Below, piece by piece: positions 8,927-36,045 of a stretch of DNA of 41,432 nucleotides. Position 1 is the first letter of the stretch. Every line of letters starts with the position of its first letter. A model generated the notes under the pieces. It made no database searches, had not been told where the DNA came from, and was given only the letters and a program-made list of their open reading frames with translations. The DNA comes from a virus: UHGV virus genome UHGV-1461890; one strand, written 5' to 3'. A program made the position numbers and the translations under genes.

Positions 8927-9949
8927 ATGAAAAACATTTTTAAAATCAACCTTCAGCTCTTCGCTGAAATGAACACTCAGGTAACCACACAGTCTTCTCT
9001 CACACCTGAGATGAAGACCTACTATGACATGACCCTCATTGACGAGGCAAGTGCAAAGCTTGTACATGACCAGTTCGGTCAGAAGAAGCCTATTCCAAAG
9101 GGCAGCGGTAAAACCATCGAGTTCCGTAAGTTCTCACCTCTTGGTAAGGCTACCACACCTCTTACTGAAGGTGTTACTCCTAACGGTAACAGCCTGACTG
9201 TAACTGCTATCACCGCTACTGTTGCTCAGTATGGTGACTACATCGTACAGTCTGATGTGCTTGAACTCACCTCTCTCGATAACACAATTATCGAGGCTAC
9301 CAAGCTCTTAGGTAATCAGGCAGGTCTCACTCTTGATACCATCACTCGTAACATTCTTCAGGCAGGTACTAACGTATCATATTGTCCTAAGATTGCTGCT
9401 GACGGTACTGAGACAGAGGTTACATCTCGTGCTACACTCGATGCTACTTGTCAGCTTACTGTTGATATGGTACAGAGAGCAGTAACTAAGCTCAGAGCGC
9501 AGAACGCTCCTACCATTGATGGTGACTATGTTGCTATTATCCATCCTTATGTTGCTTATGACCTCATGAGAGACAAGGAATGGATTGAGGCTCACAAGTA
9601 TGCTACTCCCGAAAACATCTATGCAGGTGAAATCGGCAAGATAGCAGGTTGCCGCTTCGTACAGTCCACCGAGGCTAAAATTTATAAGGGTGATGGTTGT
9701 CCTACAGGCCTTGCTGTATTCGGTACTCTCTTCTTAGGCTCAGGTGCTTATGGTGTAACTGAGATTACAGGCGGTGGTTTGCAGACTATCGTTAAGCAGA
9801 AGGGTTCTGCCGGTACTGCTGACCCACTTGACCAGAGAAGCTCTGTAGGTTGGAAGGCTATTAAGACTGCTGAAAGACTTGTAGAAAACTACATGGTTCG
9901 TGTAGAGTCTTGCTCTAAGAGATACTCTGCAACAGCAGTAGCTAACTAA
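8927..9949 (+). CDS. Major capsid protein (HK97-fold type) with an N-terminal Prp-type leader
   Basis: 340 aa with a strong RBS (AAAGGAG). Leader MKNIFKINLQLFAE. High-expression codon look. Follows the scaffold. Confidence 0.85.
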   Translation: MKNIFKINLQLFAEMNTQVTTQSSLTPEMKTYYDMTLIDEASAKLVHDQFGQKKPIPKGSGKTIEFRKFSPLGKATTPLTEGVTPNGNSLTVTAITATVAQYGDYIVQSDVLELTSLDNTIIEATKLLGNQAGLTLDTITRNILQAGTNVSYCPKIAADGTETEVTSRATLDATCQLTVDMVQRAVTKLRAQNAPTIDGDYVAIIHPYVAYDLMRDKEWIEAHKYATPENIYAGEIGKIAGCRFVQSTEAKIYKGDGCPTGLAVFGTLFLGSGAYGVTEITGGGLQTIVKQKGSAGTADPLDQRSSVGWKAIKTAERLVENYMVRVESCSKRYSATAVAN

Positions 9950-24900: not shown

Positions 24901-27265
24901 GGTTGAGCAGCTTGGTACTGATACAATGGTCTTCCTAAAATACTTAGGAGAACACAAGCAGTCTAACTCTATTGTGGACTTTGTTACATGGGACAATGCA
25001 CTTCCTTATTACACATTTAAACGCTTCGGTGAAGGCGGCGAATCTGTGTTTGAAGAGCTTATGGATGCTCAGGATAAATTGGCTTATCTTGCTGACGGTA
25101 TCTTCAAGTTTAAAGAAAATACTTGGACCGATAAAGAGGCAAGTGAGTGGAGCAAGGATACCCACACAATCAAATTACCGAGTGGTAGAGAGCTAACCTT
25201 AACCTCAGCCGATGCCATGTCAATTTACTGCCTATCACGAAGAGACCAAGGTAAGCAGCATTTGCTCGGCGGTGGTGTGAGAGTATTAGGTATCGAAAAG
25301 AATGGTAAAAAGGCTAATGACAGTAGGTCTCTGTTAAATCAGCAGGATTTAGTGGCAATAGCTAACTCCTTAACCGAAAGGCAAAAAAAGGTTGCCGAGG
25401 CTATTCAGCGATATATGTCAACCACTTGTGCTGAGTGGGGTAACGAAATCTCTATGAAGCGTTTCCTCACAAAAGAATTTAATGAACAATTCTACTTTCC
25501 TATTGAGTCTAACGATGAAAACCTCGACACAAAGGACCCGAAGGCCCAGCAGAGTGACCTTTATAGATTGCTTAATATTTCTGCTACCAAGCCTTTAACA
25601 AAGGGTGCAAACAACGAGGTTATAATCCGTAATGTGTTTGATGTGTTTGCTAATCATTCATCAGATATGGCTAAACTGAATGCTTTTGGTATGGCTCTCC
25701 TTGATTACATGAAGTGGATTAACTATCGTGTAAAGACTGTTAATGATGACGGACAAATCAGCGTTAGCGGTGTTCGTAAATCAATGGAAAAAGCCTACGG
25801 TTCAGAAGCCAATAAGTATGTGCTAAGTCTCATCAAGGATATAAATGGTCGCTATAACGATAATGGTGACAATAAGTTCCTTATGAAGATGATTCGTGGC
25901 GCTAAGACTGTTATGGTAGGTAATAACCTGAGAGTAGCGTTGTTACAGTTCACAGCATATCCAAGAGCCGCTATGGTACTTTCAAACAAGAGTCTTGCAT
26001 TAGGTCTCACTAAAGTGCCTCAGATTGAAAAAGCAAAGAAATATTGTGGCATTGCTTTGTGGAAATCGTTTGGTTTCTATGATACTAACATTTCTAAAAG
26101 CATAGAGGAGCAAATCAAGGGTGCAACGAACATTAGGCAAAAACTTATTGAGTTATCCTTAAAGGGCGCTGAATGGGGAGATGCAATCACATGGGGTTGC
26201 TTATGGAATGCCTGTGAGTATGAGGTTGCTAAAACCAATAAATACAAGGTTGGCTCCGAAGAGTTTAATCAGGCAGTAGGTAAAAAGCTTCGTGAGGTTG
26301 TATATGCGACTCAGGTTGTAGACTCTACTTTAACAAGGTCGCAGATGATGAGAAGCAAGAGTGGATTAAACCAAACCGCTTCAGCCTTCATGTCAGAGCC
26401 TACACTATCCGCTAATATGCTTATGGATGTTGCCTTCCAATTTAATCTTGAAAAGCGTAGGACAGGCTCAGCAAAGGCTGCTTGGAAAAAGACAAGTAAA
26501 TATGTCGGCAAGGCAGTAGGAGTTTACTGTGTAGTTCAGTTATTTGCTGCATTAGCAGAGAGCCTTATGGATGCTTATAGAGACGATGACGATGAGGAGT
26601 TTAAGAAGAAGTTCGGAGAGGCATTTAAAGAAAATGCTATATCCGACCTTAATCCAATCAACAAAATTCCTATTGTTGCAGATATTTCTGAAATGCTATT
26701 GTCTTTGACAGGTATAGGATACTATTCATCAGACAGTTTATACTCAACCGCTATCGATGAATTTAAAAATGTTTTTGAAACATGGCAAAAGGTTATAAAT
26801 GGTGAGGATGGTAAAACTGTTTATGCCGGTATCTATTCAACCACAAAGCTTTTATCCTACATAACAGGTGTATCAGGAAGCGGCTTAATGCGAGAGGTTG
26901 TTACCCTTTGGAACAACACAGCCGGTGCTGCTGACCCTTATTTGAAGATTAGGACATACGAAACCTCATCCACCGATAAAGGCATAGCAGAGTATCAGTT
27001 TGATAAGGGTGATACTGCCTCAGTTAAAACTACTATATCAAAAATGATTAAGGATAAAGTAAAGTCGGGCAAAACTGAAAAAGAAGCCAAATCTGCTGTA
27101 AGGTCCTCATTCACAAGCACTTATAAACCTGAATATATGGTTGCTGTAAAATCAAAAGATTATGACGAGATGAATCGCATAAGAAAACTCCTTTATGCAA
27201 CAGACTTATATGGCACATTATCCGAGCTTGACGAGACCTTGAAAAAGTGGCGCACAACTGAGTAG
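15917..27265 (+). CDS. Giant polyvalent protein, 3782 aa: hydrophobic Gly-zipper region, zincin metallopeptidase (HELTH), PBECR/MuF-C-like segment, unassigned central module, ART-PolyVal-like ADP-ribosyltransferase domain, long C-terminal region
   Basis: One stop-free 11349-nt frame with an AAGGAGGG RBS. Gly/Ala-rich hydrophobic segment at 17227-17810. HELTH at 19238-19252, preceded by NGFYKNGEIYIDLNAG. KPHDLSPEEVIGIIRAMNNPSHLVF around 19985. LSKEQQEFFKDSKVRDEKGNLKIMYHGT..GTGSYFT..DIRYSERD at 22400-23010. Confidence 0.8.
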   Translation: MGAKDVYEQLKREKQQGNSKAKKVYAQMMQSKIIDEFNSLIKHNSDFYNKTKSRFYDEDDNFIDIYRSDSEDWKNTAVSMSSSAREKSTNIRSLLDEYGSYYDADTVSSMLKTLDEHEKFSTDIVKQAVEQHDYFSEYKDENDYNQKVVIPKNQNEEWASANTEALKTEIGNLETSYKAYSELKSKRNLRSSQLISNYIKSGYTRDEAVKLAAKDKDIIEYDKKLSVYGDMSNAEKSLSEKKQFYNNATRVQEGLSLSGITDPSSKHYDPNYLKYSAKGEAMGDEKNGGFFTPDTQRKNQVAYLRNNPDMLELYEETANDANGASWGTSERILLDQIEYKAAKYMTDEEFLIYNAYLGKGDKESADKYLESIEETLTSRQGAAISEQQDTWLKKQLFSVYAGLDQWEQGIISLGNTEGKYDSPTGVQFASGTIREDLGAIGQGAYDLGVTTGNMLPSILVSYLTSGVGGAVGLGAKAAGTLGKVAGAATLGSSAAGNGYQEMLNLGYDKSQAQAYGTLVGLSEAGLEYVLGGISSLGGTVSGGITDKVVTKLVSNMDKAIAKVAIGAGGKLVGSMVSEFGEEYLQEVLDPVFKNITLNTDEDIRLFSSEALYAGILGALSAGLLEGGSSISGEVATYKAGKDVKNTGQLSNLKKFGTSFSADTVAYKIASQVDENTDAYTIGQLLHEVGADSLSEANIADIVKSLERKNISPEHAQTIAEWLNASVQGEVFNPLQRLALKNPDIAQTFKDVIINQNSTVNQRMQSYTDILQNIANEKEIIKANKSKAKAEKKANKTKTTEETKTTPFVPLSNEAITASKIESLAKELESEGVSPELAQVMAQRKVSESSEGKSVADTENAIENKFETNLDGQTLNTKTGDSVNVSEIASIKDGKMTLKLDNGETVDADDISFGTEDEGLIYSTVLDMGVNAAVANSLVKNYSPSDKLSARQYALGIKEAYKYGSYGMPINEISKNGFAADLSEAQRTHAYNLGKSDRTAKVEKAQKEVQKVVSGKNGIEGKVHFKGDELALKEVQRESLKRMGILSEVLGLNFHVFESYVDKNGKRVYKDTDGKIKKAPNGFYKNGEIYIDLNAGKDGQGIMIYTVAHELTHWIREWSPAKFKVLADFLFEQYGKGNRNVNKLIEDQITNAKNNGRTIDYDTAYEEVVADSMETMLSDDNVLEKIMLLKSKDESIIKKIGEFFEKIINSFKNLMQKYPPETTEGKLVSQMNDAFEELQSLFAEALVDASNNYQANKGQKNTTSEGDVKLQARELQRKDPTTLKEDELTTLLEYTKDKVLSDDTYIPVRINTPQILIAFAKEFGYTLENHPLAMQVYKARQALSNEENWDGDYQDKPHDLSPEEVIGIIRAMNNPSHLVFQTENERFAEIVKFEKEGSKEKAYAIVDFSDVNKNPDLMNGYKGGKYNILVTVYPSEDAADLKRYLSNKNHKVLTGEQMKKKGLSQGSYGGNTPSLLNDSPFFEDSIPQTSKKSQEKLSGRENFIGERNLEDFAEAKDTEGKTLFQYRAMESDEDVYREMLKTANIMSDSEINALFDTVDRAMDIIKDNLEILDYAWETDIDDRAFNPVKKNTDKLYQVSVDFSTLCRKRLLQQAIQAHLQEALNRPLTKNEGIAIRDALMTIQEEGKQIEIACALCYVESARMKSPAQIKRFIDGRETVIKNYFAGKSAEVKAQLKEAEAKARERLGVYDTPLTKLPSKAQKDIRGAKKDVISSYVPSAKEQELIEIAKGMSVNDFVTPKGLETLIKKYPDLFDAYASFIVNATHSKGIENDTWWRAGDSKNIGDTLIANMNAENGLRSQSWSDFQVIHLLDYMAATIELSTRKAKMQTYTKVPDFVELMGSTGEMINLSLIPTRNFNGTLDFDGIEGMEFEESLRLRDKYHATAGTIAIGVDNVQIQMLLDSMNIDYVIPYHRSGMAKAVRKAMHIPTWTEYENYQSEKNLSRDAAREQAKKYGVKLLSESDSNYQKHPNFSDWFDITEARQIAKMENSTPSDKAMAKKYGVMYGGYKAMQNAANNYLRLCAERSISPKFSHENANFTTEANYWKLLIDRKMIDNVTGEVIEQQAVKPIFDQGEVLRILNDELERYPSVKADQDYATRKVTENFLSGNIKGGMSAEAIAKAMKKSVDNIAKVNILASMGDSKLSDRDSEGNTLSKEQQEFFKDSKVRDEKGNLKIMYHGTSKGGHTVFDTYGSNYGLFGTGSYFTDNRDIAESYTKKGKGNNQQVYDTYLNITNPIDMDAQADVSKWEKQFPDADFSNCTTNEECYRAMEEWLEDEMLPKWEAAEIAIDGLQEMGYDGVTHIGGGRVNTDSTRHRVYIAFDSNQIKETTNTNPTSDPDIRYSERDAIESENKILDLESQISEIEEQLSEDIFDEIPDDERKKMNNQLWKLRNELQKLEKAEREATVKTSLSEIRDNLDKYRYIDLRSLAEGLGWEEYADLSKTQLANALRESLNEIEQEWKEDETSDFNSAKDGMWIRPISEEESNKVIKVKFQDRDADTTENIEKINKQLAKENLKLIEDVKYLKELVKLQGKETHGKVLKKSTVELVAKRLMTYVSARGNTSELVGHLTNVYNYIIQGEDVSWEGIQEKAEAAADWLMQNEHHKPVRDDVANEILHYLRTTGISFDSGQKQEAAYRYDSFNNFRKKNMGRLKITNDGLPLDMAWQELASMYPGYFDPEVNSNDQPLVLMDIIDGLQNTYELDDYHYYSDEMIKQDLLMKIYEGYWDVSALHTVADAKQKEINLLKAKHRESMDSLRQTHAEADAKLRQEHKDKISQLRSQYREREEKKVQKVAEYYQKSRKEAVDRVKESREKRDAITKLQRLVLDTAKWVSYPAKDAVKCPDIIKVPYAEFLESIDLSSKRLLSGGEPTQNDLRVASAMDSLAKAIEQKLGTQRPDTDTETVLDTGYLDLPVHFVENLKELAESLKKRMATDGHIVNSMTSTEIRDLTKFIRTLNHSIKEMSTLYANMRFAKVEQLGTDTMVFLKYLGEHKQSNSIVDFVTWDNALPYYTFKRFGEGGESVFEELMDAQDKLAYLADGIFKFKENTWTDKEASEWSKDTHTIKLPSGRELTLTSADAMSIYCLSRRDQGKQHLLGGGVRVLGIEKNGKKANDSRSLLNQQDLVAIANSLTERQKKVAEAIQRYMSTTCAEWGNEISMKRFLTKEFNEQFYFPIESNDENLDTKDPKAQQSDLYRLLNISATKPLTKGANNEVIIRNVFDVFANHSSDMAKLNAFGMALLDYMKWINYRVKTVNDDGQISVSGVRKSMEKAYGSEANKYVLSLIKDINGRYNDNGDNKFLMKMIRGAKTVMVGNNLRVALLQFTAYPRAAMVLSNKSLALGLTKVPQIEKAKKYCGIALWKSFGFYDTNISKSIEEQIKGATNIRQKLIELSLKGAEWGDAITWGCLWNACEYEVAKTNKYKVGSEEFNQAVGKKLREVVYATQVVDSTLTRSQMMRSKSGLNQTASAFMSEPTLSANMLMDVAFQFNLEKRRTGSAKAAWKKTSKYVGKAVGVYCVVQLFAALAESLMDAYRDDDDEEFKKKFGEAFKENAISDLNPINKIPIVADISEMLLSLTGIGYYSSDSLYSTAIDEFKNVFETWQKVINGEDGKTVYAGIYSTTKLLSYITGVSGSGLMREVVTLWNNTAGAADPYLKIRTYETSSTDKGIAEYQFDKGDTASVKTTISKMIKDKVKSGKTEKEAKSAVRSSFTSTYKPEYMVAVKSKDYDEMNRIRKLLYATDLYGTLSELDETLKKWRTTE

Positions 27266-30695: not shown

Positions 30696-30974
30696 TTGGC
30701 GACAGAATACATCGAGTTTGTGAAGTTAATTGTTTCAGAACTTACAATAATGGCACCTGTGATAATTGCGATATTTTTAATTATACAGGGTATTAAATGT
30801 TTGTTGAGGAGCGAGATGCTTCGAACATATTACCACAATAAAGACCGTGAAAAGATAAGACAGTTTGAGCTTGAAAATTTTATAGCCTTATACAAAGCAT
30901 ACAAAGCACTTAGAGGCAACAGCTTCATTGATAAAATATATAAAGAGGTTATGTCTTGGGAAGTAATAAGTTAA
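30696..30974 (+). CDS. Small single-pass membrane protein of the lysis region (holin-associated candidate)
   Basis: One hydrophobic helix (LTIMAPVIIAIFLIIQGI). The TTG start is weakly supported and the ATG at 30750 is an alternative. Confidence 0.45.
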   Translation: MATEYIEFVKLIVSELTIMAPVIIAIFLIIQGIKCLLRSEMLRTYYHNKDREKIRQFELENFIALYKAYKALRGNSFIDKIYKEVMSWEVIS

Positions 30975-30986
30975 AGGAGAATTGTT

Positions 30987-31181
30987 ATGGAAAAGTTTAA
31001 GAAAATAGCAAAGTATGTATTAAACAGTTTAACTATCGTAAATGCCTTGCTAATAGGCTTAGACCCTATATGGAATATTCCGTATGCGGATAAAACCATA
31101 GCAACTATATCGGTGGTTATGGCGGTAATATCTACATACTTGTTAGGCAACAAAGCCGTAAGCAAAGCAAAGGGGGAATAA
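30987..31181 (+). CDS. Holin (two transmembrane segments)
   Basis: 64 aa with two hydrophobic helices and a charged C-terminus (SKAKGE). GGAG RBS. Immediately upstream of the endolysin. Confidence 0.7.
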   Translation: MEKFKKIAKYVLNSLTIVNALLIGLDPIWNIPYADKTIATISVVMAVISTYLLGNKAVSKAKGE

Positions 31182-31182
31182 T

Positions 31183-31893
31183 ATGTTCAAACTCGCATTG
31201 AATTCAGGACATTATAAAGAAACGGCAGGTAAACGATGCCTTAAAAAACTTGATAAGAACGAGACAAGAGAATGGGTGCTGAATGACCGAATCTGTGATA
31301 AGATTGAACAAAAGTTAAAAGACTATGAAGGATATCAACTTTTGAGAATTGACGATACAACCGGAAGCACCGATGTATCCCTTGCCAATAGAGTGACTAA
31401 AGCAAACTCTTGGGGTGCTGACTTCTATCTTTCTATTCACCATAACGCAGGTATCAATGGTGGCACAGGCGGTGGTGTAATGGCATATACATATACCAAA
31501 GTTGATGAAATTACAAAGGCTTGGCAGAAGGAACTGTATAATGCAATCATCAAGAACACAGGATTAAAGGGTAATCGTTCTACTCCCCTTGCTTCTGCAA
31601 ATCTTTACGAATGCAGAAAGACAAGTATGCCATGTGTACTCCTTGAATGTGGCTTTATGGACTCCGCAACAGATGTTCCGGTCATCCTTACCGATGACTT
31701 TGCGGACAAGGTTGCATCCGCTTGTGTCTCTGTAATTGTCTCTAAGGGCGGTTTAACTAAAAAGAAGGTAGAAGAGCCTACCACATCAAAAGTCCTTTAC
31801 AGAGTGCAAACAGGAGCATTTTTTGATAAGGCTAACGCAGTTGAGCTTGTAAACAAGTTAAAGAAAGACGGTTACGATGCAATAATCGTATAA
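31183..31893 (+). CDS. Endolysin: N-acetylmuramoyl-L-alanine amidase (Amidase_3 type) with a C-terminal SPOR domain
   Basis: ADFYLSIHHNAG and CVLLECGFMDS amidase motifs. C-terminal YRVQTGAFFDKANAVELVNKLKKDGYDAIIV is SPOR-like. Confidence 0.85.
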   Translation: MFKLALNSGHYKETAGKRCLKKLDKNETREWVLNDRICDKIEQKLKDYEGYQLLRIDDTTGSTDVSLANRVTKANSWGADFYLSIHHNAGINGGTGGGVMAYTYTKVDEITKAWQKELYNAIIKNTGLKGNRSTPLASANLYECRKTSMPCVLLECGFMDSATDVPVILTDDFADKVASACVSVIVSKGGLTKKKVEEPTTSKVLYRVQTGAFFDKANAVELVNKLKKDGYDAIIV

Positions 31894-31898
31894 AAAAA

Positions 31899-31928
31899 TA
31901 GAGTCTCCTTTGCGGAGGCTCTATTTTA
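31899..31928 (+). terminator. Rho-independent terminator of the late/lysis operon
   Basis: Stem tagagtctcc / ggaggctcta with one G-U pair, loop tttgc, then TTTT. Confidence 0.75.
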
Positions 31929-31945
31929 CTTATGTATTGATATAG

Positions 31946-31974
31946 TTGACAAATAAAGGAAAATGTGTTAAACT
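31946..31974 (+). promoter_or_regulatory. Sigma-70-like promoter: TTGACA-N17-(TGt)TAAACT
   Basis: TTGACA at 31946-31951, a 17-nt spacer and an extended -10 tgttaaact at 31966-31974. Confidence 0.45.
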
Positions 31975-32006
31975 AACTACACAACAAATGAGATGTTTTA
32001 ACACAT
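31963..32006. repeat. Inverted repeat, 10-bp arms with a 24-nt spacer (attP candidate 1)
   Basis: atgtgttaaa at 31963-31972 and tttaacacat at 31997-32006 are perfect reverse complements. Confidence 0.8.
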
Positions 32007-32056
32007 CTTCCAAGAAAAATCTTATGATTTACGGCAATAAATCATAAGATTTTTTA
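31981..32056 (+). ncRNA. Candidate ~75-nt small RNA between the lysis module and the integrase
   Basis: Promoter at 31946-31974. Hairpin agatgt/acatct at 31991-32008. Strong terminator hairpin at 32018-32051 plus a T run. The only internal ORF is 19 aa and has no RBS. Confidence 0.3.
32018..32056. terminator. Bidirectional intrinsic terminator
   Basis: Perfect 14-bp stem aatcttatgattta / taaatcataagatt with a 6-nt loop. An A run lies upstream and a T run downstream. Confidence 0.7.
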
Positions 32057-32064
32057 TTTAATTA

Positions 32065-32110
32065 TTATCATAAAAAACAATTAGGTGGACCTTATTGAAT
32101 TTTATGATAA
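32065..32110. repeat. Inverted repeat, 11-bp arms with a 24-nt spacer, abutting the integrase stop codon (attP candidate 2)
   Basis: ttatcataaaa at 32065-32075 and ttttatgataa at 32100-32110 are perfect reverse complements. Confidence 0.8.
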
Positions 32111-33607
32111 CTAAATATCGTGAAAATAAATAGCTAAATTGCCTTTAGCCTTTTCAAATACAACCTTTTCAATTATTGTGCGTAACGCTTCATTCTTAGC
32201 CCGAGGTGTTACATCTTCCCTTTTTATGAACTCAAGTATGCCTACAACCTTTTCAGAGAAGGCATCTATGTCAATATCCTTAACTATGACCTTATCCCTA
32301 TCCTGCTTTAATTTCTCAATCTTAGTGGTTATTTCAGCCTTATTATTACCATACTGTTCAATGGTATCAATTTCGGCAAGGTAAGCCTCCTTTGCTCTTT
32401 CAAGCCTTCTTTCCTCTAAGGCTATGAGCTTATCATAGTCTATGGTAGGCTTTTCAGTTTGCTTAGGTGCTTTGGGTGTGATGTTAAATTGTTGGCTTCC
32501 TATGGCCTGTTCTAAACCTTTAATAAAGGCGCTTTCTAATTTAATCATACTGATAGAGTGAGATGTGTGACAAGAGCCTCTTGAATAGTTGCAACATTGT
32601 AAGGAGTGTGTTTTTTTCTTTGCAGCAAGATTCCTTGTTCCGTTATAAGCAAGTGTCGCTCCACAAGCACTACATCTAACAAGCCCTTTAAGGATATAAT
32701 CAATAGGTTGCTGCCTCCGAGCATGTTTAGAATACAACAATTTCATAGTTTGCAATCTTTCCTGAACCTTATCCCACAGTTCCATTGATATAAGTGGTTG
32801 CCAATTACCATCAATAATTTGGATGTTTTCATTGAGATAATCCCTTTTACTTACTACCTTTGAACCATCAGGTGTCCATCTGATTTTACCTATATAAGCA
32901 GGATTCCATAAAATATACTCTATCCACCTATTATCAGGTATATTACCTCTTTTGGTACGAACTCCTCTCTGCCCGAGCGAAATTGTAATTTCTCTCATAC
33001 CTTCACCATCAGCAAACCTTTGAAATATTTCTTTGATAACATCGGCAGCACCGCTTTCTACATCGGGAAGATAGGTTTTATCACCATTTATGTATCCAAA
33101 AGGAGCAAATACAGCAGGCTCTCCTCTGCTTACCTTTTCTTCCATGCCTCTTGATACTTCAGCGCCGAGGTTGATAAGGTAAAATTCATCCATCCATTCT
33201 ATAATTCTCTCCATGAGGCTTCCAAAAGGACCTTCAGGTATAGGCTCTGATACAGATTTAACCGATATGCCTATCTTTTGAAGCAAGTTTTTATATACTA
33301 TACTTTGCTCTTGGTTTCTTGCAAAACGAGATAACTTCCACACATATATAATATCAAAGGGATGATTTTTCTCCTTTGCCATGGCTATCATCAAGTTAAA
33401 GTTATCTCTTTTCTTTACGCTCTTTCCTGAGATACCATCATCATAAAATACATACTCATCAGGGATTAAATAACCTTCCCTTGCTGCAAATTCTCTGATT
33501 TTTTTGAGCTGAGAATCAGGACTGTATTCATCTTGCCTTTCATCCGATACACGAACATAGGCAGCTCCTATTTTTAATAATTCGTTTTCCACTTTATCAC
33601 TCCTCAT
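32111..33607 (-). CDS. int: Large serine recombinase (phage integrase)
   Basis: N-terminal resolvase motif GAAYVRVSDERQ..SPDSQ, a recombinase domain, a Cys-rich zinc ribbon (CSACGATL..CCNYSRGSC) and a C-terminal coiled coil. A GTG at 33592, preceded by GAGGAG, is an alternative start. Confidence 0.9.
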   Translation of the reverse strand: MRSDKVENELLKIGAAYVRVSDERQDEYSPDSQLKKIREFAAREGYLIPDEYVFYDDGISGKSVKKRDNFNLMIAMAKEKNHPFDIIYVWKLSRFARNQEQSIVYKNLLQKIGISVKSVSEPIPEGPFGSLMERIIEWMDEFYLINLGAEVSRGMEEKVSRGEPAVFAPFGYINGDKTYLPDVESGAADVIKEIFQRFADGEGMREITISLGQRGVRTKRGNIPDNRWIEYILWNPAYIGKIRWTPDGSKVVSKRDYLNENIQIIDGNWQPLISMELWDKVQERLQTMKLLYSKHARRQQPIDYILKGLVRCSACGATLAYNGTRNLAAKKKTHSLQCCNYSRGSCHTSHSISMIKLESAFIKGLEQAIGSQQFNITPKAPKQTEKPTIDYDKLIALEERRLERAKEAYLAEIDTIEQYGNNKAEITTKIEKLKQDRDKVIVKDIDIDAFSEKVVGILEFIKREDVTPRAKNEALRTIIEKVVFEKAKGNLAIYFHDI

Positions 33608-33839
33608 CTATTTCATCTTCAAAATCTTCAGCACAATATTCACATACTGTTCTACCATCTTTTAAGTGAAAAAACTCAACATAGTCATAAGACCAATACT
33701 CGTTACATTCCTCGCATAAAAAATAGTTTTCATCTAAGCATTTCTTACACAGGTGATTTTTCTCGTCAGCAATAACCAAATCACAGTTTTCAGTTCCACA
33801 CTCAGTACAAGTGCCGGTATATTCTCTTGAAGTGTTCAT
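33597..33839 (-). CDS. 80-aa zinc-ribbon protein (4x CxxC) with an acidic tail
   Basis: CTEC, CKKC, CEEC and CEYC pairs. C-terminal EDFEDEIDEE. Its 3' end overlaps or abuts the integrase start. Confidence 0.6.
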   Translation of the reverse strand: MNTSREYTGTCTECGTENCDLVIADEKNHLCKKCLDENYFLCEECNEYWSYDYVEFFHLKDGRTVCEYCAEDFEDEIDEE

Positions 33840-33854
33840 AGTTCACCTGCTTTC

Positions 33855-34430
33855 TTAATCGTCTTTTATAAAGTGATTAAAAACTAAGTAAAAAAATAAT
33901 ATTACTATTCCTACTAAAAAGAAAATTTTTGTTAATATTCCTGAGTAAGAATCCATAACGATATTTCCTATTACATCAATCCACAATAACAACAAAAAAT
34001 ATCCAACAACTTTTAATAAATCTTTATTTTGCAATATTTTTTTTAAAACACTTGTTATTTTATCTTTTATACAAAAATTTGTAATCTTACTTTCGCCATA
34101 TAACACTCGGCGGTGAATCTTTTGAAAAAGCTTAGATTGCTCCATTTCTTCTAATTTTACTTCTAACTGTTTAATCTCTTTATCTAAAGCAGAATCTAAA
34201 GCAACTCTACTTTTTACAATATCAATTGTTTTTTGAGAATGTTGTGTATAGCTAATATTGCGAAAAAGACCAGTATATTCTCTTTTTTTATACTCTGCAT
34301 TTAAAAGTTCGTGATATACATCCTGATATTTTTTATAAGCAGCCTTTTCGTTATCATTTTTTAAATAGTCTTCAACATTAGTAAAACGAAAAAATTCTTG
34401 TATATCATCGATGTCAATTCTTTCACTCAT
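33855..34430 (-). CDS. 191-aa protein with a coiled-coil N-terminal part and two C-terminal transmembrane helices (moron; exclusion or abortive-infection candidate)
   Basis: AGGGGA RBS. Hydrophobic segments VVGYFLLLLWIDVIGNIV and IFFLVGIVILFFYLVF. Very low GC by hand count: 15/60 at 33901-33960 and 13/60 at 33961-34020. Confidence 0.6.
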   Translation of the reverse strand: MSERIDIDDIQEFFRFTNVEDYLKNDNEKAAYKKYQDVYHELLNAEYKKREYTGLFRNISYTQHSQKTIDIVKSRVALDSALDKEIKQLEVKLEEMEQSKLFQKIHRRVLYGESKITNFCIKDKITSVLKKILQNKDLLKVVGYFLLLLWIDVIGNIVMDSYSGILTKIFFLVGIVILFFYLVFNHFIKDD

Positions 34431-34440
34431 AATAATTCCC

Positions 34441-34866
34441 CTAATCGTTTTTCTTCATGTAATAGTTATGCAAAGATATAATCTCTTCTTTATGGTCGAG
34501 TTTTAACCGTAATATGTCATTTTCGGATGTTAGCACTCCAACTTTGTCCTTAAGCATGACATTCTCAGCGGTTAAAAGTACAAGTTCGCTGCTGAGCCTT
34601 TCAACTTCAGCAGTAAGTTTGTCAACTTCTTCGTGCAGCATAGTGTAATTTTTACTGCCGATAACCACATTACTCTCGGCAAATAATTCGCCCATAGATA
34701 TGCCAAGAACGTCTGCAATTCGGTGAAGAGTAATAGCTTGTGGAGAGGGCGTTTCACCTGAAAAGATACGAGATACGGTCCTTTCGGGGAATTTTGACTC
34801 TTGAGCGATATATTTATAAGTATAACCAAGTTCTTTTCGTCTTTCTCTTATAATGTCAAGCCACAT
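34441..34866 (-). CDS. XRE-family HTH regulator with a C-terminal leucine-zipper-like coiled coil
   Basis: N-terminal GYTYKYIAQESKFPERTVSRIFSGETPSPQAITLHRIADVLGISMGELF HTH. C-terminal heptads VDKLTAEVERLSSELVLLTAENVMLKDKVGVL. Confidence 0.75.
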   Translation of the reverse strand: MWLDIIRERRKELGYTYKYIAQESKFPERTVSRIFSGETPSPQAITLHRIADVLGISMGELFAESNVVIGSKNYTMLHEEVDKLTAEVERLSSELVLLTAENVMLKDKVGVLTSENDILRLKLDHKEEIISLHNYYMKKND

Positions 34867-34977
34867 ATTGATGTCCTTTCAGTAGTCAAATTTGGGTATG
34901 GATTAGTCAAAAATGGACATTGAAAATCAGCTTAAAATATTTTACAATTTGCCCAACAAAAAACCAATCAGAATAAA

Positions 34978-35007
34978 TTGACAATTTCGACAAATAAATG
35001 TTAAAAT
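34978..35007 (+). promoter_or_regulatory. Orphan sigma-70-like promoter pointing into the 3' end of the repressor gene
   Basis: TTGACA at 34978-34983, an 18-nt spacer and an extended -10 TGtTAAAAT at 34999-35007. Shares the ttgaca(a)tttcgacaaa core with the cro-side promoter at 35736. Confidence 0.5.
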
Positions 35008-35121
35008 AAATTAAGAACATTTGTTCGAAAAGTCCGTTTTTTTGTACATTGATTTTTGTATTATTAAATTATAACCGAAATATTCACCTTATTTATATGT
35101 TTTTCGGAAGGGGTATCATCA

Positions 35122-35298
35122 ATGTCAAACAATCTTATAGAACTTCTAAGTATTATTCTTGAAAGCGGTAACCCGGAACAAGCAGTTCATACCGTAGCCA
35201 ATGTTATTTTTGGTCATTCATCTCAGCACGAATCGCACCGAGAAGAAATCTCTGTGTGTCAGGAGACATTTTGTCAAACGAAAGTGCCACCTCGATAA
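35122..35298 (+). CDS. Candidate 58-aa ORF below the track cutoff, convergent with and overlapping the repressor 3' end
   Basis: ATG at 35122 follows GGAAGGGG (35107-35114). Translates to MSNNLIELLSIILESGNPEQAVHTVANVIFGHSSQHESHREEISVCQETFCQTKVPPR. Its last 95 nt are antisense to CDS 35204-35620. Confidence 0.25.
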   Translation: MSNNLIELLSIILESGNPEQAVHTVANVIFGHSSQHESHREEISVCQETFCQTKVPPR

Positions 35299-35783: not shown

Positions 35784-35799
35784 GAGGGAGGTGAAAATA

Positions 35800-36045
35800 A
35801 TGAAAATGAGCGATACAAACGTTAAATTTGATTACTCCAAACTTCTTGGAAAAATCAAAGAAAAAGGCTATATACAAAGTGATATTGCTAAGAAAGTTGG
35901 CATAGGTAAGACAACTTTTAACGAGGTCCTTTCGGGCAAAACTTTTTTAAGGCAGCCAACAATTATTAAGATTTGTGATGTGTTGGAAATAGCATATAAG
36001 GATATACCCTTATATTTTTTTACCCAAAGGGTTCAGGAAAACTAA
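35800..36045 (+). CDS. Cro-like XRE HTH regulator
   Basis: The ATG at 35800 lies 8 nt after GGGAGG (the listed start is a GTG at 35791). HTH GYIQSDIAKKVGIGKTTFNEVLSGK. First gene of the rightward early operon. Confidence 0.75.
   Translation: MKMSDTNVKFDYSKLLGKIKEKGYIQSDIAKKVGIGKTTFNEVLSGKTFLRQPTIIKICDVLEIAYKDIPLYFFTQRVQEN

Follow-up and report, generated by a model that had tools for sequence, protein, structure and literature searches.

In phages of Firmicutes, the interval between integrase and repressor genes includes experimentally proven membrane-associated Sie proteins, and Sie2009-type genes have been described in Tuc2009, LC3 and the prophages of IL1403/MG1363 (PMC7693887). The same source points to a high AT content as typical of lactococcal Abi genes (PMC7693887). 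In the Streptococcus thermophilus phage TP-J34, the ltp gene likewise belongs to the lysogeny module, and its transcription takes place in the prophage (PMC3952083). RexAB-like pairs are made up of a cytoplasmic sensor and a 4-TM channel and include lambda RexA/RexB, gp44/gp43 of Gordonia phage CarolAnn, and gp30/gp31 of both mycobacteriophages Sbash and Butters (PMC6426606, PMC7542560). PdpSau of Staphylococcus aureus prophages and lactococcal AbiP, on the other hand, are membrane-anchored Abi systems consisting of a single protein (PMC10127798). A classical example of a moron is HK97 gp15 (cited in PMC10883804).

The gene analyzed here, which we refer to as X, lies in a 41,432-nucleotide stretch of the virus genome UHGV-1461890 (the window), probably from a temperate siphovirus of gut Clostridia, and appears to be part of its leftward lysogeny gene string. 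An earlier note on this DNA had taken the sharp GC trough at X as the mark of a recent insertion, or moron. We conclude instead that the trough is very probably not a scar of horizontal transfer and that X has long belonged to the lysogeny string as an accessory gene. Combined with a proposed role in phage exclusion or abortive infection, this makes up the explanation that we favor overall, with somewhat less assurance. The anti-phage function taken by itself is suggested by context and is quite possible. Features of the locus are collected in Table 1.

Table 1. Features of the lysogeny module and adjacent lysis genes, with positions in the window.
Feature	Position	Strand	Description or support
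Small TM genes of lysis cassette	30696-31181		
Endolysin	31183-31893	opposite to X	about 2 kb from X
AT-rich non-coding stretch, lysin/integrase interval	31818-32230		minimum 25.3% GC (300-nt scale)
Large serine integrase, 498 aa	32111..33607	(-)	last gene of leftward lysogeny operon; Pfam Resolvase, Recombinase, Zn_ribbon_recom
Zn80, 80 aa	33597..33839	(-)	four CxxC motifs (zinc ribbon); weak Zn_ribbon matches
X, 191 aa, ORFan family	33855..34430	(-)	cytoplasmic helical domain and C-terminal 2-TM hairpin
TM hairpin of X, codons 140-184	33879..34013	(-)	hydropathy and AlphaFold; 7-residue tail after
Soluble N-terminal domain of X, codons 1-139	34014..34430	(-)	alignment and AlphaFold
HTH141, 141 aa	34441..34866	(-)	Xre-type HTH and leucine-zipper-like C-terminal coiled coil; Pfam HTH_3 2.3e-10
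AT-rich non-coding stretch, HTH141/cI interval	34787-35173		minimum 25.7% GC (300-nt scale)
AT-rich intergenic region upstream of HTH141-X-Zn80-int	34867..35203		presumed promoter site
cI-like repressor, 140 aa	35204..35626	(-)	first gene of leftward lysogeny arm; Pfam HTH_3 6.4e-11, Phage_CI_repr; PHROG transcriptional repressors
cro-like gene	35791-36045		divergent from cI-like repressor

The trough is real and, at the scale of a gene, unique. The G+C counts given in the earlier note were reproduced exactly, both within X (15/60 for 33901-33960 and 13/60 for 33961-34020) and in the regions used for comparison (24/60 for 32401-32460, 22/60 for 34501-34560 and 29/60 for 9001-9060). Over the whole reading frame, GC content is 24.8% (143/576) as compared to 38.5% for the window, which places X 4.1 sd below the average of all 576-nt segments (mean 38.5%, sd 3.3%). 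Just 0.04% of these segments reach the GC content of X, the lowest one genome-wide (24.5%) starts at position 33862, and all those at or below 29% overlap the X frame. When the scale was reduced to 300 nt, two further places at or below 27% GC were found, both of them non-coding and located in the same module as the gene. Similar troughs throughout the genome were therefore not a feature of the full-window profile at either scale.

To dissect the trough, a null model was used in which the same protein was encoded by synonymous codons resampled from the window's own usage. The expected values were 31.9 +/- 1.2% for GC (about 31.8-31.9%) and 33.4 +/- 3.3% for GC3, the latter against an observed GC3 of 17.7%, which is the lowest of the 42 genes (27% to 44% for the others). 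X thus deviates by z = -5.8 for GC and z = -4.8 for GC3, with the next gene at -2.6. The GC content predicted from amino-acid composition (~31.8-31.9%) is itself lower for X than for any other gene, and about half of the deficit is due to this composition, which is rich in Lys, Ile, Leu, Phe, Tyr, Asn and Asp. The remainder is the near-exclusive choice of the phage's own preferred codons, all of which (18/18) end in A or T. Accordingly, a CAI-like index computed against the phage's own usage is 0.836 for X and ranks it first of 42, so that a foreign codon signature was ruled out, X having the codon usage most typical of its phage. The trough is also common to most homologs of X (GC of 26-28% versus a background of 33-37% in L001, L007, L009, L013, L015, L072 and L075), indicating that it is an old, maintained property. 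The synonymous-site deficit, on the other hand, is outlying in the window gene and not in L001 and L007 (z about -1), and the window allele may conceivably have been exchanged with an AT-richer relative.

Comparison with relatives places X in the same position over considerable distances. Members of the X family were found on the same strand directly upstream of the integrase gene, or of Zn80, in 10 distinct contexts (the window, L001, L007, L009, L011, L013, L015, L072, L075 and the less clear L074). The homologs sharing this slot are 40-67% identical to X at the amino-acid level, and the reading frame is full-length at this identity in 9 clusters. The slot is kept alongside integrases of either class, serine or tyrosine, and next to five kinds of upstream neighbor, namely HTH141 (window and L013), a 172-aa protein, a 140-aa protein, an ImmA-like M78 peptidase, or none. 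No close relative was found in which the family is missing from this slot. Moreover, dS between X and its relatives is 0.63-0.71, which equals or falls below the values for backbone genes (0.69-0.76 for RecT and 0.91-1.07 for YqaJ) and compares with 0.88-0.96 for Zn80 and 1.27-1.42 for the integrase; these are NG86 estimates and are imprecise under a base-composition bias of such size. Nucleotide identity of X to relatives (76-78%) falls between the values for its neighbors Zn80 (87%) and the integrase (72-74%), and there is consequently no mosaic discontinuity. In distant relatives, with YqaJ at or below 70% identity, the slot is instead taken by small GC-poor genes with no relation to X. The one in L016 is lipoprotein-like and has an LSSC lipobox, those in L039, L044 and L057 encode 3-4 TM segments, and L045 carries a 2-TM gene. 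Judged from gene order across these genomes, the site immediately preceding the integrase gene behaves, even at large evolutionary distances, as a place for accessory cargo, and the same comparison indicates that the window's clade has kept the X family there since before the integrase types diverged.

The leftward genes, all on the minus strand, follow the order cI, HTH141, X, Zn80, integrase. The start of X lies 10 nt from the HTH141 stop, its own stop lies 15 nt from the start of Zn80, and an 11-nt overlap joins Zn80 to the start of the integrase gene. A SD-like AGGGGA is positioned 7 nt ahead of the X ATG. A consensus scan of the minus strand, which a promoter inside HTH141 could escape, found no promoter upstream or terminator downstream of X, and a search for repeats flanking X on both sides, direct or inverted, yielded only short chance matches and no scar. 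The tight junctions, together with the missing promoter/terminator pair and repeat scar, argue that X is not an autonomous moron cassette. A promoter driving X is presumed to lie in the intergenic region upstream of HTH141, where two TAGTCAAA-type direct repeats, 21 nt apart, are found at 34883-34923; no minus-strand sigma-70 match of at least 9/12 was found in this region. Given its orientation and spacing, with the gene co-oriented with those for the repressor and integrase, X is predicted to be expressed in the lysogen.

Both immediate neighbors were considered as obligate partners of X and ruled out. For HTH141, the upstream neighbor varies in most contexts: a homolog 67% identical to HTH141 is present in L013, and none is found in L001, L007, L015, L072 and L075. 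In L016, L039 and L044, the gene that precedes the slot encodes a protein with the same N-terminal MWLD motif, and an HTH protein lacking MWLD is found there in L045. The Zn80 homologs of L007, L009 and L015 show 86-88% identity and an omega of 0.06. Zn80 tracks the serine integrase, being found only beside integrases of this class (also in L072) and absent from L013 as well as from L001 and L075, which have tyrosine integrases.

The X protein itself has the architecture proposed in the earlier note, a coiled-coil cytoplasmic part followed by two C-terminal TM helices, on which hydropathy and AlphaFold agree. At its N-terminus, MSERIDIDDIQEFF..., the protein has an acidic, hydrophilic character and lacks a lipobox. 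Helices are predicted for residues 7-16, 26-60, 66-97 and 100-111, with 26-60 and 66-97 forming an antiparallel hairpin (pLDDT about 90 there, 74.8 for the overall model). In the family alignment, 17 residues are invariant, including an EQSKL..IH motif at residues 97-106, and the linker spanning residues 113-139 is hypervariable. TM1 (141-159) and TM2 (165-183) are joined by a 5-residue loop, DSYSG, with Kyte-Doolittle peaks of 2.12 and 2.67, and the corresponding AlphaFold helices cover 136-160 and 165-188. Loop and TM residues are conserved in this hairpin. The four K/R residues just ahead of TM1, the short loop and the lack of a signal peptide predict an N-in/C-in topology, with only ~5 residues outside the membrane. 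Omega values of X relative to its homologs are 0.27-0.44, with a range of 0.17-0.44 for the 9 clusters (about 0.3 overall); they indicate purifying selection but are 2-6 times higher than those of the backbone genes. Broken down by domain, omega is 0.26 for residues 1-60, 0.14 for 61-112, 1.02 for 113-139 and 0.31 for the TM hairpin; at about 1.0, the linker is, by this sequence measure, evolving neutrally.

Distribution of the family is very narrow, with 8 representatives among 1.84 billion (1.84e9), and the contigs carrying homologs all come from a few metagenome projects. Neither X nor the family members scanned have a match past the curated cut-offs of Pfam, PHROG or NCBIfam. The best PHROG match is no better than E = 0.15, and the best Pfam match (DnaJ-X, E = 0.021) was taken as coiled-coil noise, as was the only PADLOC match, a partial one to SspC (E 3.4e-4, 16.8 bits, 90/1097 profile positions). 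A blastn search (distant mode) of INPHARED phages with the 4.2-kb lysogeny module returned no match, and tblastn of X against 50,697 INPHARED phage records returned a single one at E = 0.7. The family was likewise not found in GTDB representative genomes and IMG/VR by a pattern-plus-tblastn search, nor in 56 YqaJ-related loci by HMM scan. Among PDB sequences, a profile search with X retrieved only keratin and coiled-coil noise, and Foldseek of the X model against PDB and BFVD gave nothing at E < 0.1. The sub-threshold Foldseek matches were generic helical hairpins (LSD1 tower, BAR domains, UvsY and EsxB).

Within the family, the C-terminal part varies in kind. In P0006, P0008, P0009 and P0010, the 2-TM hairpin is swapped for a module with three predicted TM segments; by hydropathy, three segments are counted in these four proteins and in P0013, and two in P0012. 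The multi-TM module is also found with other N-termini. P0014, encoded in the same slot, has an X-type N-domain without any TM segment, followed by a SHOCT-like tail. By sequence comparison, the C-terminal module of the family is thus exchangeable between a 2-TM hairpin, a multi-TM module and a TM-less SHOCT-like tail.

How might such a protein work? In the explanation that we favor, the N-terminal 135-140 residues of X would form a cytoplasmic antiparallel coiled-coil hairpin bearing EQSKL..IH, tethered by the neutral linker to an N-in/C-in two-helix membrane hairpin, and the protein made in the lysogen would give protection against other phages. [quoted passage not shown] The presence of TM-less P0014 in the same slot indicates that membrane insertion is dispensable in the family, and this weakens the pore/effector model. 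Elevated omega, narrow distribution and shuffled modules would be typical of conflict genes. The exclusion function received no homology support from the family, sequence and fold searches. A more elaborate proposal, about which we are rather doubtful, is that the family constitutes an undescribed single-chain prophage defense of gut Clostridia phages, resembling a fused RexA-RexB, in which an EQSKL..IH coiled-coil sensor and a neutral linker would be combined with interchangeable effector/anchor modules in a dedicated slot, with AT-richness under selection (for example, setting the expression of a potentially toxic membrane protein).

Among the alternatives, the one that survives best is a core lysogeny function, although we consider it unlikely. 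Here, a membrane-tethered coiled coil would modulate the lysis-lysogeny switch or integration/excision, for example by sequestering or scaffolding the HTH regulator, the repressor or the integrase at the membrane, or by coupling induction to membrane status. Retention of X in 10/10 clade contexts, always adjoining the integrase gene or Zn80, and its close translational packing with HTH141 and Zn80 agree with such a role, as does the strong constraint on residues 61-112 of the cytoplasmic domain. The leucine-zipper-like coiled coil of HTH141 could pair with another coiled coil, and the tail of the TM-less variant is of an oligomerization type. However, L016, L039 and L044 have a closely related serine integrase and an HTH141-like regulator and do without the X family, carrying unrelated membrane or lipoprotein-like genes in its place. 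With both integrase types and five upstream neighbors on record, no specific partner is conserved, and the omega of X is well above that of the backbone. The retention of X in every close relative, coupled to regulator and integrase genes, fits a core lysogeny function as well as an accessory one. More specific roles in the phage cycle were also considered. A recombination directionality factor is unlikely because X is membrane-anchored, co-oriented with int and found with both integrase classes. A holin or antiholin was ruled out, X being in the wrong module and on the opposite strand from a lysis cassette that has its own small TM genes, with a 140-aa cytoplasmic domain that would be atypical.

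An addiction or toxin-like module, in which the upstream HTH protein would restrain X in a TA-like fashion, or a host-directed lysogenic conversion that alters envelope physiology in the gut, is improbable. Small AT-rich membrane genes are common toxins, the hairpin loop and TM residues of X are conserved, and an Xre-type HTH gene is found directly upstream in the window and L013. These are, however, the only two contexts with HTH141, so the upstream partner is not conserved. Furthermore, a large conserved cytoplasmic domain is unexpected in a simple membrane toxin, and apart from the generic HTH no PADLOC or TA-family match was obtained.

A recent moron, that is, a foreign autonomous cassette inserted between regulator and integrase with its low GC inherited from an AT-rich donor, is more improbable still. 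It would account for the depth of the trough, the lowest GC3 of all genes and the synonymous-site deficit relative to the phage's usage, for the variable slot of distant relatives, and for the absence of X from INPHARED, IMG/VR and GTDB representative genomes. On the other side stand the shared slot in each close relative seen, a dS no higher than that of the backbone, the intermediate nucleotide identity, the most rather than least phage-typical codon usage, the half of the deficit that is due to amino-acid composition, the troughs of the homologs, and the 10- and 15-nt junctions lacking flanking repeats or a promoter/terminator pair. What stands of the moron label is the deviant composition and the long-term slot for accessory cargo; recent arrival and an autonomous cassette do not. 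Finally, a chance ORF in an AT-rich spacer would fit the very low GC and the lack of a database family, but it can be dismissed given the conserved frame, the omega values, the 17 invariant residues, the good SD sequence and the confident AlphaFold helices.

In any case, X serves as a worked example of why a steep drop in GC along a phage genome is by itself no evidence of recent horizontal acquisition, as its trough, composed of amino-acid composition and an exaggerated form of the phage's own codon preference, persists across relatives at dS of about 0.7. The analysis also brings to light a small protein family that had no annotation, and with it a slot for cargo immediately before the integrase gene, in a group of temperate gut Clostridia phages with giant polyvalent proteins. 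For now, X would be classed from its sequence as an ordinary "hypothetical membrane protein in the lysogeny module". Were it an exclusion or Abi factor, it would add a new defense gene for a host group with very few characterized prophage defenses, and its modular build would be convenient for asking how such proteins are triggered.

Set against the described systems, X resembles classical morons in having a deviant composition inside a conserved phage module and a membrane product, but it differs from them in being embedded in an operon, in lacking a flanking promoter or terminator, and in being present in close relatives. The Pfam scan at E <= 1 gave no match of X to SieB of P22/lambda. PdpSau and AbiP are architectural analogues, each a single prophage protein with a membrane anchor and a cytoplasmic domain that causes Abi with loss of membrane integrity. 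However, PdpSau has an N-terminal helix as its anchor, an OB-fold-like, positively charged C-terminal domain and a location beside the lysis genes, and no sequence or fold similarity of X to PdpSau or AbiP was found. RexAB-like systems are expressed in lysogens from beside the immunity repressor and have cytoplasmic and multi-pass parts, which the X family joins in one chain; X nonetheless differs from them as a single polypeptide, and its family includes the TM-less P0014. The membrane component of these systems passes the membrane four times; two TM segments are predicted for X and, by hydropathy, three for several family members. An hmmscan, which is less sensitive than the HHpred used in the corresponding papers, found no DUF4747 match in X and six family members. 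Like X, Ltp is an accessory product of the lysogeny module that has been retained by a few closely grouped phages. Unlike Ltp, X has no signal peptide or lipobox and is predicted to be almost wholly cytoplasmic, and the ~5 exposed residues count against a surface-acting Sie. A parallel to Ltp is nevertheless provided by the lipoprotein-like gene in the slot of L016. Sie2009 is hydrophobic at its amino terminus, whereas X is hydrophobic at its C-terminus and would place ~140 hydrophilic helical residues in the cytoplasm. The two share no sequence similarity (no significant PHROG/Pfam match), and the host of X appears to be of the gut Clostridium type rather than Lactococcus. In layout, however, Sie2009-type genes are like X: they lie in the lysogeny module between repressor and integrase on the same strand as both, and encode a small membrane-associated product restricted to a narrow phage lineage, in a slot whose contents vary from phage to phage.

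Gene X (33855–34430, minus strand; 191 aa) had been read in the earlier note as a recent insertion, a moron, on account of a sharp GC trough. The trough is real: the five hand counts of G+C in that note were all reproduced exactly, and the global GC minimum of the window lies within the gene. Its GC content is 24.8% versus 38.5% for the window (standard deviation of 3.3% for gene-length windows), a value this low occurs in just 0.04% of 576-nt windows, and nowhere else does GC fall to 29% or below at that length. At the 300-nt scale there are just two further dips to 27% or below, both non-coding and both close by, one in the lysin-integrase spacer and the other in the spacer upstream of the operon. 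Comparable troughs all over the genome, which the note had named as its refuting condition, were thus absent from the full GC profile, and the observation stands. The GC3 of X (about 17.4–17.7%) is the lowest among 42 genes, the remaining genes ranging from 27% to 44%.

The source of the deficit was analyzed by holding the X protein fixed and drawing each codon from among its synonyms according to their usage in the other genes of the window. The expected GC obtained in this way was 31.9 ± 1.2%, the lowest expectation among window genes, and therefore about half of the 13.7-point deficit is due to amino acid composition (22 K, 22 L, 20 I, 15 D, 13 F, 11 Y and 9 N among 191 residues). The remaining 7 points are synonymous: GC3 was expected at 33.4 ± 3.3%, and the observed value has a z-score of −4.8, with the runner-up gene at −2.6. 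All 18 of the window's 18 preferred codons end in A or T, and X uses the preferred codon most consistently of all genes (60% most-common codons; CAI-like index of 0.836, rank 1 of 42). Because this preference is for the window's own A/T-ending set, the codon-usage check proposed in the earlier note argues against a foreign origin; the synonymous bias is not foreign. In all but one (L011) of eight loci, homologs of X have 26–28% GC where the remainder of the locus has 33–37%; for L001 and L007, relatives that are AT-richer, amino acid composition explains most of the homolog's low GC (z about −1). Since the synonymous deficit of X is an outlier in the window itself, a past exchange of the X allele with an AT-richer sibling phage is possible, and it would remain within the family's own slot, the position directly upstream of the integrase gene.

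Among 5.8 billion protein clusters searched, only nine, X itself included, belonged to the X family, at 40–67% identity, and a profile run against 1.84 billion representatives matched only eight proteins. Genomic context was obtained for nearly all members; the contigs all trace to a small number of metagenome projects. Every context recovered places the gene downstream of a cI-like repressor gene and directly upstream of an integrase gene that shares its strand (see table). The phages of the longer contigs have a YqaJ/RecT/SSB early region in common; the giant ART-PolyVal protein is also found in the L001/L002/L004 and L007 phages, and a BppU-type protein in L001–L005, L007 and L008.

Comparisons of the window with L001, L007 and L015 gave no sign, in dS or identity, of a younger or older history for X than for the backbone. 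The dS of X (NG86, which is imprecise at extreme base composition) was 0.63–0.71, alongside 0.69–0.76 for RecT, 0.91–1.07 for YqaJ, 0.88–0.96 for the downstream zinc-ribbon gene Zn80 and 1.27–1.42 for the integrase, and its nucleotide identity of 76–78% falls between the values for the two genes downstream of it, 87% for Zn80 and 72–74% for the integrase. X starts 10 nt past the stop of the upstream Xre-type gene HTH141, behind an AGGGGA Shine-Dalgarno sequence, and ends 15 nt before Zn80. A consensus-based scan found no minus-strand promoter or terminator flanking X, and no repeats bracketing it were found. Given the shared slot, the backbone-like dS, the tight junctions and the lack of promoter, terminator and repeats, X is neither an autonomous cassette nor a recent arrival in this phage; the low GC common to its homologs likewise speaks against a recent insertion. 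The most useful result is a negative one: the GC trough does not date X.

Fifty-six more distant relatives were fetched from GTDB genomes and IMG/VR via the well-conserved YqaJ gene, relatives of which occur in Clostridia MAGs (e.g. Oscillospiraceae, Acutalibacteraceae). An HMM scan found the X family in none of the 56. Where these phages have an integrase, the slot is filled by other small genes, mutually unrelated and GC-poorer than their own phage by 6–19 points, most of them membrane or lipoprotein-like; the serine integrases of L016, L039 and L044 are close to that of the window (phmmer E-values of 1e-215 to 1e-226). These occupants point to the slot being a general hot spot for cargo, long used by AT-rich genes for membrane proteins, in which the window's clade has kept a single occupant, the X family, for a long time.

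Features of the window and of related loci (GC, gene versus phage)
Feature	Position	Strand	Description	GC
Giant ORF	15917–27265	+	3782 aa, between tail genes and BppU-like gene	
Endolysin-integrase spacer	31818–32230		AT-rich, non-coding	~25%
Zn80	33597–33839	-	80 aa, four CxxC (zinc ribbon); overlaps serine integrase start	
Zn80 homologs	L007 10569–10814; L009 905–1150; L015 1486–1731; L072 8544–8789		80–81 aa	
HTH141	34441–34866	-	second Xre-type HTH gene, leucine-zipper-like C-terminal coiled coil; just upstream of slot	
HTH genes upstream of slot	L016 7276–7773; L039 6851–7333; L044 8212–8622; L045 2812–3351; L013 606–1031			
Spacer upstream of operon	34787–35173		non-coding	
Promoter-like site	34978–35007	+	TTGACA-18-TAAAAT with TG, 11/12	
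Small ORF	35122–35298	+	58 aa, MSNNLIELLSIILESGNPEQAV..., strong SD (GGAAGGGGT); conserved	
Small-ORF homologs	L001 4892–5047; L013 223–342; L015 250–420		same place; N-terminal ~30 aa conserved	
X context	L001–L006		cI, 172 aa, X, tyrosine integrase	
X context	L007/L008		cI, X, 81-aa Zn protein, serine integrase	
X context	L009/L010 and L015		X, 81 aa, serine integrase	
X context	L011/L012		HTH, 140 aa, X, serine integrase	
X context	L013/L014		HTH141 homolog, X, serine integrase	
X context	L072		cI, 172 aa, X (TM-less variant), 81 aa, serine integrase	
X context	L075		HTH, ImmA-like M78 peptidase, X, tyrosine integrase	
P0014	L072 8001–8528		N-terminal domain kept; soluble SHOCT-like tail replaces TM hairpin; same slot	
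P0013	L074 947–2284		445 aa; different, longer N-terminal region plus P0006/P0010 multi-TM module; downstream of HTH gene	
Slot gene	L016 6902–7264		120 aa, lipoprotein-like, LSSC lipobox	37.5% vs 44.0%
Slot gene	L039 5949–6467		172 aa, 4 TM	33.1% vs 41.3%
Slot gene	L044 7834–8178		114 aa, 3 TM	38.6% vs 44.2%
Slot genes	L045 2145–2776		62 aa with 2 TM; 136 aa without predicted TM	27.5%, 25.3% vs 34.0%
Slot gene	L057 3854–4081		75 aa, 3 TM	22.4% vs 41.5%
Slot gene	L059 7020–7688		222 aa, without predicted TM segment	34.4% vs 51.3%

The window is a 41.4-kb temperate siphovirus-type genome, in the order terminase, portal, capsid, tail, giant ORF, BppU-like protein, lysis cassette, leftward lysogeny arm, and rightward early arm with YqaJ, RecT and SSB. 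Pfam ART-PolyVal and LPD3 domains occur in homologs of the giant ORF, which are 3673–4062 aa long and 80–83% identical where sequence was available for comparison; the ORF is therefore a giant 'polyvalent protein' within the virion-structural region. The endolysin-integrase spacer, where attP would be expected to lie, has a terminator-like hairpin with a 14-bp stem at 31895–31927. Zn80 is conserved at 86–88% aa (ω 0.06–0.07), above the integrase (70–76%), and is found only beside serine integrases, though not beside every one, L013 being without it; Zn80 may assist the integrase as an accessory factor. The N-terminal MWLD motif of HTH141 is common to the proteins just upstream of the slot in L016, L039 and L044, and the L013 homolog is 67% identical; at this position L045 has an HTH protein that is without the motif and has a predicted TM helix at its C-terminal end. 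The 58-aa ORF is convergent with the cI-like repressor gene, overlaps its 3' end by 95 nt, is preceded by the region's best sigma-70-like site and had no match in family scans. Within the lysis-lysogeny switch, this ORF is a candidate for a small regulator or an antisense unit. Candidate operator sites are a pair of direct repeats of the TAGTCAAA type, spaced 21 nt apart at 34883–34923 just upstream of the HTH141 start, and an imperfect inverted repeat around 34985–35025, which overlaps the promoter-like site on the plus strand.

X is a real gene under purifying selection, with ω of 0.17–0.44 versus 0.05–0.15 in backbone genes. An AlphaFold model (shallow nine-sequence alignment; mean pLDDT of 74.8) predicts helices at 7–16 (short), 100–111 and 121–134, an antiparallel hairpin (26–60 and 66–97; pLDDT about 90), and membrane-length helices at 136–160 and 165–188, where hydropathy places TM segments at 141–159 and 165–183. 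The predicted topology is N-in/C-in with almost nothing exposed outside, because there is no signal peptide, four K/R residues stand just before TM1, and the loop has five residues. Constraint is strongest at 61–112 (ω 0.14), which includes an invariant EQSKL..IH motif, followed by 1–60 (0.26) and the TM hairpin (0.31); it is absent in the linker 113–139 (1.02). Within the family, the N-terminal domain pairs with the 2-TM hairpin, a module of three predicted TM segments (P0006 and P0010, with another version in P0008 and P0009), or a TM-less SHOCT-like tail, and the multi-TM module is joined to unrelated N-termini in P0012 and P0013. Family, profile and structure searches gave no family, structure or fold match for X beyond generic coiled-coil hairpins.

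We propose that X would be expressed in the lysogen and act against other phages. It lies in the lysogeny string, tightly packed with regulator and integrase genes; it has a predicted membrane-tethered cytoplasmic architecture, weaker constraint than the backbone, module exchange and a narrow distribution; and elsewhere its slot holds membrane or lipoprotein-like genes. The proposal draws on precedents. Some genes located between repressor and integrase in Firmicute phages encode membrane-associated proteins of proven Sie function, and lactococcal Abi genes are noted for being characteristically AT-rich (PMC7693887); Ltp is a lysogeny-module Sie protein transcribed in the prophage (PMC3952083), and PdpSau is a single-protein Abi with a membrane anchor (PMC10127798). 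The main rival, a core role in lysogeny control, would fit the universal retention of X within the clade and the existence of a TM-less variant, but relatives that share this integrase and type of regulator manage without the X family. Because X is predicted to be nearly all cytoplasmic and its C-terminal module is interchangeable, we lean slightly towards an Abi-like sensor-plus-membrane-module, or action on DNA entry at the inner face, over a surface block.

None of the described families includes X. It lacks the hydrophobic N-terminus of Sie2009, the lipobox of Ltp, the DUF4747 domain of RexAB (and is a single chain), and any Pfam hit to SieB, and it lies in the wrong module for a holin. 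The moron reading holds in part, in the loose sense of a cargo-type slot: of the features of a classical moron X has the deviant composition, but it is not absent from relatives and, by the consensus scan, has neither its own promoter nor its own terminator. The slot is of a known type, and the X family that fills it is an ORFan family without annotation; it resembles the Sie and Abi cargo genes carried in lysogeny modules in where it sits and, on the proposed reading, in how it would work.
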